Assembly: GCA_964417895.1 (NCBI GenBank)
Contig: CAYQJS010000004.1
Coordinates: 51,724 to 115,723, forward strand
DNA: 64,000 nt
DNA from: an uncultured Chloroflexota bacterium
Lineage (GTDB): Bacteria > Chloroflexota > UBA6077 > SHYK01
Reading direction: 5' to 3'
Numbering within the stretch: the first letter of the stretch is position 1; the number at the start of each line of letters is the position of its first letter. Of the stretch, positions 31,830 to 49,843 are shown piece by piece. Position numbers and translations under genes: made by a program. The notes under the pieces were generated by a model. The model was not told the origin of the DNA and ran no database searches. It saw only the letters and a list, made by a program, of their open reading frames with translations.

Positions 31830-32140
31830 CCACCCCCGTTTTTTCTGGGGGCTTCGCCCCCAGCCCCCGGGGGGATTGGCGCGGGCTTTGCCCCGGCGCC
31901 CCAGGGCAGGGGCCATCTTCCTTCCCCCCAGCGCCCCGGGGGGCGGGTCTTCATTCCTTCCCGAGGGCGGGCGGCGGGGGCCGCCTTCATTCCTTCGCCC
32001 CAGCCCTGGGGGCGGTCTTCGTTCCTTCCCCTCAGGGCGAGGGAGGGGGTGAAGTTAGCGCACCTCCGCGATTCGGCGACTCTCAGCCCAGCCCTCCTCC
32101 ACAAGGGGAGGGGCTGGTCCCTCTGCCCTCAGCGCTCCTC
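31830..32140. repeat. G/C-run hairpin repeat region including a 4-copy ~38-bp tandem array
   Basis: Units ..atcttccttcccccc.., ..gtcttcattccttccc.., ..gccttcattccttcgcccc.., ..gtcttcgttccttcccc.. (about 31908-32050), each followed by a G-run; family-2 copy at ~32085. Confidence 0.75.
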
Positions 32141-32209
32141 CAGAGCGGCCGTGGCGGGCGGTCACCCCGCCATGGGACAATTGGGGCACACTCATCTGGG
32201 GGCAATCGT

Positions 32210-33913
32210 CTGGCCGAGAAGCAAGGCGCATTTACTTTCGTCCTCCATTCGCACATTCCTTACTGCCGCGGGGCCGGCCGCTGGCCTCACGGGGAAGAGT
32301 GGCTCCACGAGGCCGCCGCGGAGACGTATGTCCCGTTGCTCTCCGCTCTCTACGATCTCCGCGCCGAGGGCGTCGCATTCGCGGCGACCATCGGCCTGAC
32401 CCCCGTCCTGGTCGAGCAGCTTCGAGACCCGCTCGTTAACCAGCACTTCGCGGAATACCTGGACCAACGCATTCGCGCTGCCGCGTCGGATGGCGACCGA
32501 CATCGGGCGGCGGGCGCGACGGACCTTGCGAGCCTCGCCGACTTCTACCGCGCCAGATACTCCCACGTTCTGAGCGAGTACGAGAACAGGTTCCGCCGCG
32601 ACCTGGTGGCGGCGTTTCGCGGGCTGCAGGACTCGTACCATGTGGAGATCGCCACGTCCGCCGCGACACACGGCTATCTCCCACTCTTCGAGCGCGACTC
32701 AACCGTCGCCTCCCAGGTCGCGACCGGCGTCGCTGCCTACGAAGAGGCGTTCGGGCGACGCCCACACGCGATCTGGCTTCCCGAGTGCGCCTACCGACCG
32801 CGGTATTTGGCAGGGTCCGGTGAGGATGCCTACGAGAAGCCCGGTCTCGAGGTGTTTCTGGATGAGCAGGGGCTGCGCGTATTCTTCACGGAGACCCAGA
32901 CGGTGGAGGCGGGCCGGGCGATAGGGAAGTCGGCGGGAGACGCCATCGGGCCCTATGGGGGCACTCCGCTCCGTTCGCTCGTAGGTCACGCCGATCCCGG
33001 CCGCCACTCGACGTTCGAGGCGTACCGGGTTGGCGACGCCAACGTCGCGGTGCTGGGCCGCAACGCCCGTACGGGCTTGCAGGTCTGGTCGGCCGAGCAC
33101 GGGTACCCCGGCGACCACCGCTACCGAGAGTTTCACAAGAAGCACGAACGCTCCGGCCTGCAGTACTGGCGCATCACCGGCTCGGGCGTCGACCTGGCCG
33201 ACAAGGACATCTACCAGCCGGCTGAGGCCGCCGCTCAGGTAGAGGACCATGCCCGGCACTTCGTGGCGCTCGTGGAGCAGGAGATCGCGAGCTACCATCG
33301 CGCCACAGGCCGCTATGGGATCGTCGTCGCCGCCTACGATACCGAGCTGTTCGGCCACTGGTGGTTCGAGGGCGTCGACTGGCTTCGGGAGGTCCTGCGG
33401 CTGCTCGCTTCCAGCGAGGTCGTCGACCTGGTGACGGCGAGCCAGTTCGTCGAGCTGCATCCCCCTGAGCATGCGGTGGCACTACCCGAGAGCAGCTGGG
33501 GTCAGGGTGGCGATCACTCAACCTGGCTGACCGCCGACACCGAGTGGATGTGGGCGAGCATTCACCTGGCCGAACGCCGAATGGAGCGGATCGTGGCGCG
33601 TTACCCGCACGCGTCGGGCGCAACCTCGCAGGTGCTGGCCCAGGCCGGTCGGGAGCTCTTGCTCCTGGAGAGCAGCGACTGGCCGTTCCTGGTGACCACG
33701 GGCCAGGCCCGTGACTACGCCGTAGAGCGTTTCAAGGGCCACGAGGAGCGGTTTCGGCAGCTGGCGGATGTACTAGAGCACGGGTCGGTGGATTCCGACG
33801 CGGCCGCCATTGCCGCCACCCTCTTCGAACGCGACCGGGTTTTCGCCGCCATCGATTACCAGATGTTCCGCAACCGGGAACGGTCGCTCGCGGGCGCAGG
33901 CTCGCCTGCTTGA
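32210..33913 (+). CDS. GH57 family 1,4-alpha-glucan branching enzyme-like protein (GH57 + DUF1957)
   Basis: FTFVLHSHIPYCRGAGRWPHGEEWLHEAAAETYVPLL, WLPECAY, AAYDTELFGHWWFEG, LLESSDWPFLVTTGQARDY; the conserved N-terminus lies upstream of the first ATG/GTG/TTG (track start 32336); proposed CTG 32210. Confidence 0.85.
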   Translation: MAEKQGAFTFVLHSHIPYCRGAGRWPHGEEWLHEAAAETYVPLLSALYDLRAEGVAFAATIGLTPVLVEQLRDPLVNQHFAEYLDQRIRAAASDGDRHRAAGATDLASLADFYRARYSHVLSEYENRFRRDLVAAFRGLQDSYHVEIATSAATHGYLPLFERDSTVASQVATGVAAYEEAFGRRPHAIWLPECAYRPRYLAGSGEDAYEKPGLEVFLDEQGLRVFFTETQTVEAGRAIGKSAGDAIGPYGGTPLRSLVGHADPGRHSTFEAYRVGDANVAVLGRNARTGLQVWSAEHGYPGDHRYREFHKKHERSGLQYWRITGSGVDLADKDIYQPAEAAAQVEDHARHFVALVEQEIASYHRATGRYGIVVAAYDTELFGHWWFEGVDWLREVLRLLASSEVVDLVTASQFVELHPPEHAVALPESSWGQGGDHSTWLTADTEWMWASIHLAERRMERIVARYPHASGATSQVLAQAGRELLLLESSDWPFLVTTGQARDYAVERFKGHEERFRQLADVLEHGSVDSDAAAIAATLFERDRVFAAIDYQMFRNRERSLAGAGSPA

Positions 33914-33916
33914 TCC

Positions 33917-33968
33917 GGGGGATTCCCTCCCCCCTTGAGGGGGAGGGGCAGGGAGGGGGGTAACGCCC
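33917..33968. repeat. family-2 type hairpin (ccctccccccttgagggggagggg)
   Basis: gggggattccctccccccttgagggggaggggcagggagggggg. Confidence 0.75.
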
Positions 33969-33991
33969 GCGACGATCCGAAATACCCCGCT

Positions 33992-35491
33992 ATGCATAAG
34001 GCACCTTCGCGGAACGATAAACATGAACAACGGGGCACTTGCCTGAAGGTCCTCTTCGTCGCGGCAGAGGTCGCGCCCTTCGCCAAAGTTGGCGGTCTGG
34101 CCGACGTGGCGGGCGCCCTCCCCAGAGCCCTCCGCGCGCTCGGCCACGACGTTCGGGTCATCATGCCGCGCTACGGTACCATCGACGGCGATCGCCATGG
34201 TCTGCGCGATGTCGGCAATGGCGACGCGCTGTCGATCGCGGGGAGCCCCGAGAGGGCGCAGCTCTTCGAGGCTGATTCGGGCGGCGTCCCGACCTACTTC
34301 GTGGGGAACGAGCGCTACTTCGCCCGAGATGGCGTCTACGGCTTCCCCGATGACATCGAACGCTTCCTGTACTTCTGCGGCGCGGCGCTGGCGGCGCCCG
34401 AGCGTCTCGGGTGGGCCCCCGACGTAGTCCACGCCAACGACTGGCACACGGCGATCATCCCTCACTGGTTGAAGATGCCGCCGGCCCTGCCCGAGTGGGC
34501 AAGCTCTGCCGCCTCCGTCCTCACCATCCACAACCTGGCCTACCAGGGCGGCTTCGACCCTGCGTCGTACTCCGCGTGGATCGACCCGAAGTCCCTGCAC
34601 CCGCGCGACGACGGGACCTGCGACCTCCTGAGCCAGGGAATCTGGAGCGCGGATCTCGTGACGACGGTCAGCGAGCGGTACGCGCATGAGATCACGACCC
34701 CGGAGTACGGTGAGGGCCTCGATGGCCTCCTGGCGCGCCGGCGTGCGCAATTACGCGGCATCGTCAATGGCATCGACTACGAGGCCTTCGATCCGGCGAC
34801 CGACCCGGCGATAGCCCGGCGGTACTCGGCCGAGGCGCTTGAGGGCAAGGCGGCCTGCAAGGAAGCGCTGCAGCGTGAGAGTGGATTCGACGTGGCGCCG
34901 AGGACGCCGCTCATCGGGCTCATCGGGCGTCTCGCGGACCAGAAGGGCTACGACCTGGTCGCCGCCATCCTGGAGCCCTTCCTCGCTGAGGTCGATACGC
35001 AAGTCGTGCTCCTGGGGACCGGGGAGCCGCGCTATCACGACCTTTTCCGCGCGCTGGCCGCCCACAACCGGCGGCAGCTCGCCGTCCACCTCACGTTCGA
35101 TGCTGCCCTCGCCCAGCGCATCTACGCGGGAGCCGACATCTTTCTCATGCCCTCCCGATTCGAGCCGTGCGGCCTGGGCCAGCTGATCTCGCTGCGCTAC
35201 GGGACGGTCCCCGTCGTGCGGTCGACTGGCGGCCTGGCGGACACCGTGGCCGACTACCAGGCCGCGACGGGCCGCGGGACGGGCGTCGTCTTCCGCGGCT
35301 ACGACGCGACGGCTCTGGCGGTGGCGCTCGGCCGGGCGCTGGAGCTGTATCGCCAGTCCGACCGCTGGCGCGAGATCCAGCTCCAGGGCATGCGCCAGGA
35401 TGTGTCGTGGAGCGCCTCCGCGCGTCGCTACGTGGAAGCCTACGAGGACGCAGTGCGAGCGGCGGCCGGCGCTCGGGGCGCCACTGCGTGA
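33992..35491 (+). CDS. glgA: glycogen synthase (ADP-glucose type, GT5)
   Basis: LKVLFVAAEVAPFAKVGGLADVAGALPRAL; the canonical N-terminus would start at CTG 34043 (GGGG + 7 nt upstream); ATG 33992 gives an AT-rich 17-codon extension. Confidence 0.9.
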   Translation: MHKAPSRNDKHEQRGTCLKVLFVAAEVAPFAKVGGLADVAGALPRALRALGHDVRVIMPRYGTIDGDRHGLRDVGNGDALSIAGSPERAQLFEADSGGVPTYFVGNERYFARDGVYGFPDDIERFLYFCGAALAAPERLGWAPDVVHANDWHTAIIPHWLKMPPALPEWASSAASVLTIHNLAYQGGFDPASYSAWIDPKSLHPRDDGTCDLLSQGIWSADLVTTVSERYAHEITTPEYGEGLDGLLARRRAQLRGIVNGIDYEAFDPATDPAIARRYSAEALEGKAACKEALQRESGFDVAPRTPLIGLIGRLADQKGYDLVAAILEPFLAEVDTQVVLLGTGEPRYHDLFRALAAHNRRQLAVHLTFDAALAQRIYAGADIFLMPSRFEPCGLGQLISLRYGTVPVVRSTGGLADTVADYQAATGRGTGVVFRGYDATALAVALGRALELYRQSDRWREIQLQGMRQDVSWSASARRYVEAYEDAVRAAAGARGATA

Positions 35492-40716: not shown

Positions 40717-41700
40717 TCAGAGGTTGACCCGGTGCATGTCACGGGTGCGGGGACCCGCCGCCGCCCCGGGTGGCATGATCGCATCGATCCAGGCGAGATC
40801 CTCCCCGGTGAGCTTGACGTCTATCGCCTTCAGGTTTTCCTCCAGGTGCTGCCGCGTCCTGATACCTGGGATGGGGATAATGTCAGGTCCCTGGACCATC
40901 AACCAGGCCAGCGCCAGCTGTGCCGGCGTAACCGACTTTTCCTGGGCCATCTCCTCGATCTGGGCCAGAAGCTTCAGGTTGTGCTCGAGGTTGCCCGGCT
41001 GAAGGCGCGGGTGGTCGCGGCGGTTATCGCTATCGGGTAGGTCTTCGAGGTGGTGAAAGGCGCCCGCCAGGAAGCCGCGGCCTAGCGGCGAGTAGGCCAT
41101 AAGACCCATGCCAAATTCGCGGCAGGCCTCAACGTTGCCCGCCTCCTCTGGCTCGCGCGTCCACAACGAGTACTCGATCTGGAGGGAGACAATGGGGTGC
41201 ACGCTGTGGGCTCGGCGGATGGAGGCGGCGCTGGCCTCGGACAGTGCAATGTAGCGAGCCTTGCCTTGCTCCACGAGGCGCACCATGCCCCCAACGGATT
41301 CCTCGATGGGGATGTTTGGATCGACGCGGGACATGCAGAAGATGTCGAGCGTATCGACGCCGAGACGGCGCAGGCTTTCCTCACACGTTTGAATCAAGTA
41401 CTCGGGGCTGCCACCGCCGCGATCCCCGCTGCCGTCCGGCGTACGCGGGCTGCCGGACTTGGAGTGGATCACGACGCGCTCTCGGCGCCCCCTGATAGCC
41501 TTGCCGATCAGCTCATGGTTATGCCCGTTGCCGTAGCTCGCTGACGTGTCCAGGAAGTTGACGCCCAGATCGAAGGCCCGATGAAGCGTGGCGATAGACT
41601 CGGCGTCGTCGGCCTGGCCGCGCGAGCCGGACATGCCCATGCAGCCGATGCCCATCGGCGACACCTTCAAGTCGGTGGTGCCGAACAGTCGGTATTCCGT
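40717..41700 (-). CDS. aldo/keto reductase
   Basis: TEYRLFGTTDLKVSPMGIGCMGMSG...LDTSASYGNGHNHELIG; start codon unresolved (first canonical in-frame start after the pnp stop is TTG 41670). Confidence 0.8.
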   Translation of the reverse strand, partial: TEYRLFGTTDLKVSPMGIGCMGMSGSRGQADDAESIATLHRAFDLGVNFLDTSASYGNGHNHELIGKAIRGRRERVVIHSKSGSPRTPDGSGDRGGGSPEYLIQTCEESLRRLGVDTLDIFCMSRVDPNIPIEESVGGMVRLVEQGKARYIALSEASAASIRRAHSVHPIVSLQIEYSLWTREPEEAGNVEACREFGMGLMAYSPLGRGFLAGAFHHLEDLPDSDNRRDHPRLQPGNLEHNLKLLAQIEEMAQEKSVTPAQLALAWLMVQGPDIIPIPGIRTRQHLEENLKAIDVKLTGEDLAWIDAIMPPGAAAGPRTRDMHRVNL

Positions 41701-45350: not shown

Positions 45351-45737
45351 ATGCTGACTGAGGCTCAACAAAGGAGCCTGAACGACAAGGGCGTCGACTG
45401 GGCGCGCCTGGACTACGTCGAGGCGGCCGACGTGCTCGACGCCCTCGACCGTGGAAACGCGCTCGTCGTGGACACGAGGAAGCCAGAGAAGTACGAGTTG
45501 GGCCATTTCCCGGGCGCGGTGCACCGCCAGTCGGATGACCCGCTGTTACTGGCCCTCCCGCGCGAGTGGGCCATCTACACGTACTGCACCTGAGAGGATG
45601 AGTCCGCGGCGTCGCGTGCGGCGCTCACCCTTCTCAACGCGGGCTATGCGGATGTGCACGTCATCTGCGGGGGCCTCGATGCCCTGAACGTGGAAGCCGA
45701 CCGGCGCGGCGTGCATGCTGAGGCGGCTGCAACGTAG
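45351..45737 (+). CDS. rhodanese-like domain protein interrupted by an in-frame TGA (45591-45593)
   Basis: aggag SD + ATG 45351; ...VVDTRKPEKYELGHFPGAVH...AIYTYCT*EDESAASRAALTLLNAGYADVHVICGGLDAL...*; final TAG at 45735. Confidence 0.65.
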
Positions 45738-49296: not shown

Positions 49297-49464
49297 ATGG
49301 AAGCCATTACCCGCGAGGATAAGGAGGCCGAGGAGCGGTGGCTTGCTGGACTCCCCGAACACCTTCGGCAGATCGCCATTGAGGGAATCGAGGAGGGCGA
49401 GCGGTCCCGGCAGGAAGCAATCCGCAAGGCGAAGGAGGCTCGCCGTAGTACCCCTGTATCTTGA
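49297..49464 (+). CDS. small ORF (55 aa), possible antitoxin partner of the DUF5615 gene; not in ORF track
   Basis: MEAITREDKEAEERWLAGLPEHLRQIAIEGIEEGERSRQEAIRKAKEARRSTPVS*; its end overlaps the DUF5615 N-terminus. Confidence 0.3.
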   Translation: MEAITREDKEAEERWLAGLPEHLRQIAIEGIEEGERSRQEAIRKAKEARRSTPVS

Positions 49465-49843
49465 TGAGTGTCTGGTCGCCAGGCAAGTGGCCCGTCAGCT
49501 TCGCGCGGCGGGCCACTTGATTTACGTGACGACTGAGCTTGGCTTAGATGGTGCAGATGATGACGTGCACCTCGCTAGAGCCACGGAATTGGGGGCAGTC
49601 CCGGCGAGCCAAAATCAGAGCGACTTCGATCCCCTCCACGATGAGTGGCAGAAGCTGGGCCGAAGGCACGCTGGCCTCCTTGTCTCGCGGCAGCTCCCAA
49701 TTGGTGTTCGAATCAGGCGACTCGAACGGGCCGCTCGGTTGCTACGTCCTGAGATCGCTGAAAACCAGCTGATGAAGCTGGCGATGTTCGACACAGAGGA
49801 GAGGAGGCTGCTCTTCGTCCAGAGCCTAGCTCCGTCCGCCTGA
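49454..49843 (+). CDS. DUF5615 (PIN-like) family protein
   Basis: LYLDECLVARQVARQLRAAGHLIYVTTELGLDGADDDVHLARATELGAV..SQNQSDFDPL matches the family from residue 1; the only start-like codon at the N-terminus is CTG 49454. Confidence 0.55.
   Translation: MYLDECLVARQVARQLRAAGHLIYVTTELGLDGADDDVHLARATELGAVPASQNQSDFDPLHDEWQKLGRRHAGLLVSRQLPIGVRIRRLERAARLLRPEIAENQLMKLAMFDTEERRLLFVQSLAPSA

Follow-up and report, generated by a model that had tools for sequence, protein, structure and literature searches.

Conserved CTG codons as probable translation starts of a GH57 branching-enzyme gene and glgA in a Chloroflexota-like lineage

Two glycogen-metabolism genes and their 5' ends

The 64,000-nucleotide stretch of DNA considered here (positions 51724-115723 of contig C4 in the genome assembly G000, hereafter the window) originates from an uncultured Chloroflexota bacterium and carries, among others, two genes of glycogen metabolism, namely the gene of a GH57 1,4-alpha-glucan branching enzyme and glgA, encoding an ADP-glucose-type glycogen/starch synthase. 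Neither of them has a usable canonical start codon (ATG, GTG or TTG), and in both cases a CTG codon, at 32210 and 34043, respectively, is found at the expected place, seven nucleotides (nt) after a short run of G. These CTG codons and their spacing are conserved, the DNA upstream of them behaves as non-coding, and both genes are under purifying selection. On the basis of these comparisons, it may be concluded, with a probability of about 0.8, that both genes are functional and that their translation starts at CUG 32210 and CUG 34043. We infer from the same comparative evidence that ribosomes start at these codons and place formylmethionine (fMet) as the first residue. The coordinates of all the features discussed are collected in Table 1.

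The assembly G000 is metagenome-like (5.66 Mb, 142 contigs, 65% G+C). A 16S rRNA gene was not found in it, so the anti-Shine-Dalgarno sequence was deduced from the consensus of the Shine-Dalgarno (SD) sites of the genome, which is an ordinary GGAGG centred at -12 to -7; approximately one quarter of the true starts in G000 have no SD site. Relatives carry labels of the same type (G001, G002 and others). G006, a related genome taken in full (1.88 Mb), and a 310-kb part of G005 were compared with G000 by reciprocal best hits, giving 1001 and 144 pairs, respectively. Two sister-strain contigs, L163 from JGI and L164 from ENA, are independent metagenome assemblies of other samples and were recovered by exact-match and protein look-ups; an exact-match search for glgA among the genome contigs gave no match.

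The GH57 protein contains the catalytic domain PF03065 (1.6e-31) and the branching-enzyme C-terminal domain PF09210 (3.6e-29) of Pfam. The NCBIfam models NF041133 and NF041566 align with it over the full length, yet below the equivalog cut-offs (558 vs 1000 bits). Its reading frame is open from 31817 and contains no ATG, GTG or TTG before TTG 32336, and the conserved segment FTFVLHSHIPY...EEWLHEAAAETYVPLL lies upstream of this TTG, so that a start there would truncate the enzyme at the cost of about 37 profile positions. Position 1 of the NCBIfam branching-enzyme profile falls five residues past CTG 32210, which is the sole near-cognate codon at a proper distance from the G-run. Orthologues in nine relatives (52-63% identity) start at M-K-x-G-A-F-T-F or up to a few residues before it. 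The closest complete one, from G005, reads ATG GCG ATG AAG CTT GGC where the window has CTG GCC GAG AAG CAA GGC, and in this codon-for-codon alignment CTG 32210 matches an ATG.

The sister strain adds to this picture. Contig L163 is 94.9% identical to the window over 1909 nt and keeps both CTG GCC GAG AAG CAA and the preceding element in the form GGGAG-N7-CTG. The two strains do not differ in the first 120 nt that follow the CTG, whereas the 200 nt on its 5' side contain three single-base indels with a net break of the frame and are 71-83% identical. Like the window, L163 has no usable in-frame ATG, GTG or TTG ahead of the conserved N-terminus. The ratio of nonsynonymous to synonymous substitution rates (dN/dS) between the two strains is 0.33 for this gene (567 codons, about 5% nucleotide divergence), and internal stops are absent. 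The initial annotation, made from the letters of the window, had proposed a CUG start for this gene, and its coordinates of the CTG, of the GGGGG at 32198-32202 seven nt upstream and of TTG 32336 as the first canonical codon proved accurate; the proposal itself is now supported by the orthologue alignment, the profile coordinates, the sister contig and dN/dS.

GlgA is recognized by the model TIGR02095 with 552.8 bits (cut-off 328.45). From 34043, the gene reads CTG AAG GTC CTC TTC, and the K-x-G-G-L motif of the protein (KVGGL) occupies residues 16-20 counted from the CTG. Four NCBIfam GlgA equivalog models place their position 1 exactly on the residue of CTG 34043, in agreement with the earlier view that the family-typical N-terminus begins precisely there, seven nt after GGGG 34032-34035. 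Contig L164 is 96.6% identical to the window, and GGGG-N7-CTG is retained in it. An in-frame TAG of this contig stands 15 codons 5' of the CTG, and no ATG, GTG or TTG lies between the two. Homology between the window and L164 starts at 34008, and further upstream identity falls to 40% with 30 gap columns. Codon log-odds place the onset of coding-type codon usage exactly at CTG 34043, although this estimator is noisy genome-wide. For glgA, dN/dS is 0.15 relative to L164 (482 codons, 3.4% nucleotide divergence), again with no internal stops. The prediction that standard gene callers would truncate or mis-extend such genes is borne out by the public call on GlgA of L164, which takes a GTG located 21 codons further 3' as the start and thereby lacks the KVGGL sugar-nucleotide motif.

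Table 1. Features of the window connected with the starts of the GH57, glgA and DUF5615 genes
Feature	Position	Strand	Evidence or remark
GH57 1,4-alpha-glucan branching enzyme gene, CTG 32210 to TGA stop	32210-33913	+	Pfam, NCBIfam, orthologues
GGGGG, weak SD-like run	32198-32202	+	7 nt before CTG 32210; GGGAG, also at 7 nt, in L163
CTG, proposed GH57 start codon	32210-32212	+	Aligned with the first ATG of G005; kept in L163
GAG at the ATG/GTG start position of five relatives	32216-32218	+	Orthologue alignment; GAG also in L163
TTG, first in-frame canonical start of GH57	32336-32338	+	42 codons 3' of the CTG, within the conserved domain
In-frame ATG, probable gene-caller start for glgA, probably not used	33992-33994	+	Absent from L164
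Conserved leader 5' of the glgA CTG, 35 nt	34008-34042	+	94% identity between the window and L164
GGGG, weak SD-like run	34032-34035	+	7 nt before CTG 34043; identical in L164
CTG, proposed glgA start codon	34043-34045	+	Kept in L164; profile position 1
glgA (ADP-glucose-type glycogen/starch synthase), from CTG 34043	34043-35491	+	TIGR02095, dN/dS
55-codon upstream open reading frame, TGA stop overlapping the DUF5615 5' end	49297-49464	+	C-terminus RRSTPVS followed by the stop, kept in G003
GAAGGAGG, SD site	49431-49438	+	6 nt before GTA 49445, 15 nt before CTG 49454
DUF5615 (PIN-like) gene without a canonical start; GTA 49445 at the family start	49445-49843	+	Pfam PF18480, paralogues

Two G+C-rich hairpins of the type CCCTCC(N)…GGGGAGGG were noticed at 32093-32118 and 33926-33948, 90-120 nt 5' of the two CTG codons. 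They are kept in the sister contigs L163 and L164, where the loop region shows compensating changes, and may be T-less terminators or elements similar to repetitive extragenic palindromes. A promoter scan of 31950-34100 revealed no sigma-70-like site.

The G-runs and other possible starts

At 5-10 nt from the two CTG codons, the only SD elements are GGGGG and GGGG at 7 nt (GGGAG at 7 nt in L163). The arrangement GGGG-N7 had been pointed out in the initial annotation. Genome-wide, it is not a special signal: true starts have a bare GGGG at 5-9 nt in 3.6% of cases vs 2.3-3.0% of control positions, and the likelihood ratio is no more than about 1.2-1.6. The run may be regarded at best as a weak variant of the SD site and not as a signature. 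Its preservation in the sister strains, as GGGAG-N7 and GGGG-N7, suggests that it probably serves as a weak SD site.

Several facts weigh against CUG initiation of these two genes. The SD-like elements of both are weak, while most other non-canonical starts found in this work have a strong GGAGG (a GGAG or GAGG core at about 16 of the 19 others, counted by eye). Five relatives start the GH57 gene two codons past the CTG, at the codon that reads GAG in the window; this GAG is also present in L163, which means that the canonical start at that position had been lost before the two strains split. In glgA, the codon at the CTG position is TTG in G003, GTG in G013, CTG in G001 and G002, GTC in G005 and CTA in G010, the last with an ATG two codons upstream. 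The CTG of G002 is clearly internal, being preceded by AAGGAG-N9-GTG six codons upstream, and the window itself offers the in-frame ATG 33992. As far as these alignments go, because of the internal CTG of G002, the GTC of G005 and the CTA of G010, a leucine at this position does not by itself mark a start. The start of glgA therefore appears ambiguous when judged by the relatives alone, and it is the comparison of sister strains that settles it; when orthologues were aligned, as the initial annotation had suggested, a clear match of the CTG with the first ATG of G005 was obtained for GH57 and a mixed picture for the glgA relatives, with L164 being decisive.

A start of glgA at ATG 33992, with an N-terminal extension of 17 residues and CTG 34043 as an internal leucine codon like that of G002, would agree with the short extensions of G002, G010 and many 72%-identical homologues (MSDQLKILY..., MSDPDKLKILF...), which have leucine at the CTG position. 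This ATG is in frame with glgA and, though no SD site lies upstream of it, the same is true of about a quarter of the starts in G000. We consider this start unlikely. The stretch with ATG 33992 has no counterpart in L164, where the region is not homologous, the ATG is missing, and the in-frame TAG is followed by no canonical start before the CTG. In addition, the 16 codons after ATG 33992 have a log-likelihood ratio of -5.99; when compared with the 16 N-terminal codons of each of 1488 confident genes, they fall at the 1st percentile, and their score equals the median for upstream non-coding DNA. The likelihood ratio for the codon usage of the extension is 0.15, in agreement with the former remark that its codons are atypical of the genome. 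It is very unlikely that the GH57 gene starts at another non-canonical codon close to CTG 32210, such as ATT 32180, GAG 32216 or AAG 32219. ATT is in frame, AAG is a near-cognate of AUG, and GAG occupies the start position of five relatives; but ATT is not preceded by an SD site, is not kept in L163 and is separated from the coding frame by an indel, GAG is not a near-cognate, the conserved G-run lies 13-16 nt from GAG and AAG and 7 nt from the CTG, and it is the CTG, not GAG or AAG, that is aligned with the first ATG of G005.

One could also suppose that the start codons have been lost and the genes are silent or dying pseudogenes, or that the CTG codons are errors in a metagenome-assembled genome, all the more so as GH57 reads GAG at the commonest orthologous start position and the same window contains other genes without a start, those of an aldo/keto reductase and of a DUF5615 protein. 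This seems highly improbable. The same CTG codons are present in two independent assemblies from other samples, and frameshift-like junctions are not in excess in this assembly (3 vs 8 in a relative). The reading frames of both genes are intact in both strains, and dN/dS values of 0.33 and 0.15, at nucleotide divergences of 5% and 3.4%, respectively, argue against both assembly error and decay. Initiation at CUG 32210 and CUG 34043 is, in our opinion, the reading that agrees best with these data.

Non-canonical starts in the genome and its relatives

The check proposed earlier, a genome-wide scan for conserved N-termini without ATG, GTG or TTG, was carried out with orthologues as anchors and recovered its positive controls, namely the prfB frameshift and the TGA (selenocysteine) codons of selD and of a DsbA-like gene. 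No canonical start precedes the conserved N-terminus in about 0.7% of the 1001 orthologue pairs, and at this frequency the lack of a canonical start is not a trivial chance occurrence. After removal of artefacts, the rate of genes with a non-canonical start in G000 and G006 is about 0.7-1.3% of conserved genes, as counted from alignments curated by hand. In 182 orthologue pairs the start is well defined, and the non-canonical codon most often aligned to it is CTG (7 cases vs 4 or fewer for any other).

In G000, CTG behind a site of the AGGAGG type was found in an extradiol-dioxygenase-like gene (after AGGAGG-N5, aligned to an ATG of G006), in guaA (AGGAGG-N7-CTG), in pgk (aligned to GTG, at profile position 1) and in an aldo/keto reductase gene (at profile position 1). 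ATC takes this place in ftsA, where it is conserved in G006 behind GGAGG-N7, in infC, which has ATA in G006, and in one further gene (GGGAG-N7-ATC). In G006, CTG starts belong to gyrB, coaE, rdgB and two other genes, and ATC starts, behind GGAGG, to dnaJ and plsX. In this lineage, a family of Chloroflexota, CTG or ATC thus appears to be the start codon of roughly 1% of the conserved genes. A broader suggestion is that the whole family (G000, G006 and their kin) has relaxed start-codon selection, for instance a less stringent initiation factor 3 (IF3) or a less stringent check in the P-site of the 30S subunit, with about 1% of conserved genes, including the essential gyrB, pgk, guaA, ftsA, dnaJ and plsX, depending on CTG or ATC; this idea is tentative and rather doubtful at present. 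Under such relaxed selection, codons other than near-cognates might also serve as starts in some genes, such as GTA in the DUF5615 gene (with a perfect GAAGGAGG-N6), GTC in an aminotransferase gene and ACG in an aldo/keto reductase gene.

Other ways to count such starts were less successful. An estimate of coding onset from codon log-odds was too noisy. For 8.5% of well-defined starts with SD and ATG, it lay over 10 codons too far upstream, and its 204 "hits" are for this reason uninformative. Expectation maximization over all 61 codons as start types was confounded by its coding-potential term, which favoured either preferred or rare codons, according to the inclusion or exclusion of the start codon in the scoring. 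A test of NTGA overlaps was dominated by the canonical CTGATG, and a count of BLAST homology 5' of the first canonical codon, the candidates from which were inspected by eye, gave many artefacts from a conserved upstream gene in another frame, from conserved SD regions and from scaffold gaps. Codon enrichment near gene starts, conditioned on an SD site, showed only a mild excess of CTG (39 of 258 vs 8.5% overall).

The DUF5615 gene had been named as a third case of CUG initiation, with homology beginning at CTG 49454. This claim is not supported: the CTG is present and has no canonical start nearby, but homology with paralogues and orthologues begins three codons earlier, at GTA 49445. The codon at this family start is ATG in the paralogue of contig C25, TTG in two paralogues of C30 and GTG in the orthologue of G027, while the position of CTG 49454 is variable (TTA, CTA and CTC in paralogues, ATA in the G027 orthologue) and, according to these alignments, is an internal leucine position of the family rather than its start. 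The orthologue of G003 keeps GTA GTA CCC CTG, and judging from this pair the absence of a canonical start is conserved across two genera. The same GAAGGAGG site with the same spacing occurs before the ATG of the C25 paralogue and in the G003 orthologue. The 55-codon upstream open reading frame (ORF) has no match in Pfam or NCBIfam. Translation of the DUF5615 gene may begin at GTA, at CTG 15 nt from the SD site, or by reinitiation after the overlapping ORF.

This family is multi-copy, with eight matches in G000, including C25:11238-11615 (-), C30:48332-48685 (-), C30:35529-35630 (-), C11:60733 (+) and C6:108738 (+). Each copy in G000 is preceded by a small ORF that ends in …RR(S/G)T… and overlaps the start of the copy, and the whole looks like a family of toxin-antitoxin-like modules with a partner other than DUF433.

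Some further genes deserve mention. The CTG of gyrB in G006 (C9, + strand, 123257) is aligned with a TTG of G000 and has a TAA two codons upstream and GAGG-N9, and a twin-arginine signal protein of the same genome (C10, 67319) shows a one-base frameshift at its start. In the aldo/keto reductase gene downstream of pnp (window 41698-41700, - strand), ACG stands at the position of the first residue of the family, with GGGG 9 nt upstream; position 1 or 2 of the NCBIfam profile falls on T-E-Y-R, and the first canonical start would remove an N-terminal hairpin. An ORF of G000 from position 27345 of C50 (+ strand), encoding an LL-diaminopimelate/class-I aminotransferase with the conserved N-terminus VVRAARRIENLPPYLF, has GTC where G006 starts with GTG; neither a near-cognate codon nor an SD site is found nearby, and an array of heptanucleotide repeats lies directly upstream. 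Genes of an extracytoplasmic-function sigma factor (C1, + strand, about 71860) and of a flavin-reductase-like protein (C16, + strand, 20794) have no identifiable canonical start before their conserved regions, and no convincing near-cognate codon with an SD site was found for them. Outside the window, G000 has two tRNA-Sec(TCA) genes, and in G000 and G006 homology extends through an upstream TGA in selD and in the DsbA-like gene with …U-P-Y-C… (C2, - strand, ORF offset 5091; C4, - strand, ORF offset 12260). Together, these data indicate that selenocysteine is in use, which bears on a rhodanese ORF with an in-frame TGA at 45351-45737 of the window.

Mechanism, known systems and significance

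In the proposed mechanism, the initiator fMet-tRNA with anticodon CAU would read CUG with a mismatch in the first position, as it does in the case of GUG and UUG, and the 30S subunit would be positioned by weak SD pairing of the G-run seven bases upstream, where GGGGG could pair with CCUCC through one G-U pair. The efficiency of such initiation is presumably low. The initiator tRNA of G000 is of the normal CAU type, and a search of the tRNA set of this genome for an initiator with an altered anticodon found none. It may be added that C1 of this tRNA is opposite U72, the usual partner being A72. The set includes only two CAU tRNAs, one initiator and one elongator-like, together with tRNA-Ile(UAU), and an obvious third CAU tRNA that could decode AUA by means of lysidine was not seen in it.

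In Escherichia coli, near-cognate starts are known in infC and pcnB (AUU) and in plasmid repA (CUG), and CUG, AUA, AUC and AUU are listed as starts in NCBI translation table 11. The near-cognate start of infC has a regulatory role in the autoregulation of this gene by IF3. The genes considered here are similar to these cases in that an initiator tRNA is assumed to act on a near-cognate codon behind an SD site; a role of the autoregulatory type belongs to infC of E. coli, and a regulatory role for the glycogen genes is hypothetical. When all 64 codons were measured in E. coli, CUG, AUA, AUC and AUU reached 1-2% of AUG (Hecht et al., bioRxiv 10.1101/063800). According to the same preprint, 99.95% of the annotated starts of well-annotated genomes are ATG, GTG or TTG; in the lineage considered here, in contrast, about 1% of the conserved genes have none of the three.

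The nearest parallel is provided by Deinococcus deserti, in which N-terminal proteomics proved the starts of rpsL (CTG), Deide_03051 (CTG) and dnaA (ATC) (Baudet et al. 2010, PMC2830850), while an ATA start was inferred for infC of Deinococcus (PMC2830850). As in Deinococcus, the conserved N-terminus lies 5' of any ATG, GTG or TTG, the CTG or ATC is kept among relatives, housekeeping genes are affected, and gene callers mis-annotate them. In contrast to Deinococcus, the evidence here is comparative, and the genes belong to glycogen metabolism of a Chloroflexota-like lineage and have weak G-run SD elements. Thus, the mechanism itself is not new, and we deal with a known type of exception, here in two glycogen-metabolism genes.

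The value of these results lies mainly in annotation, with a modest observation at the level of the lineage. The public calls of these genes are incorrect, and a gene caller would either shorten the GH57 enzyme by 42 codons or lengthen it by 130 codons of junk. About one in 100 conserved genes in the lineage, essential ones included, would be affected in a similar way. As to the biology of the organism, CUG starts and ribosome-binding sites that are both weak would keep the enzymes of glycogen synthesis at a low level of translation, which could be a regulatory setting.

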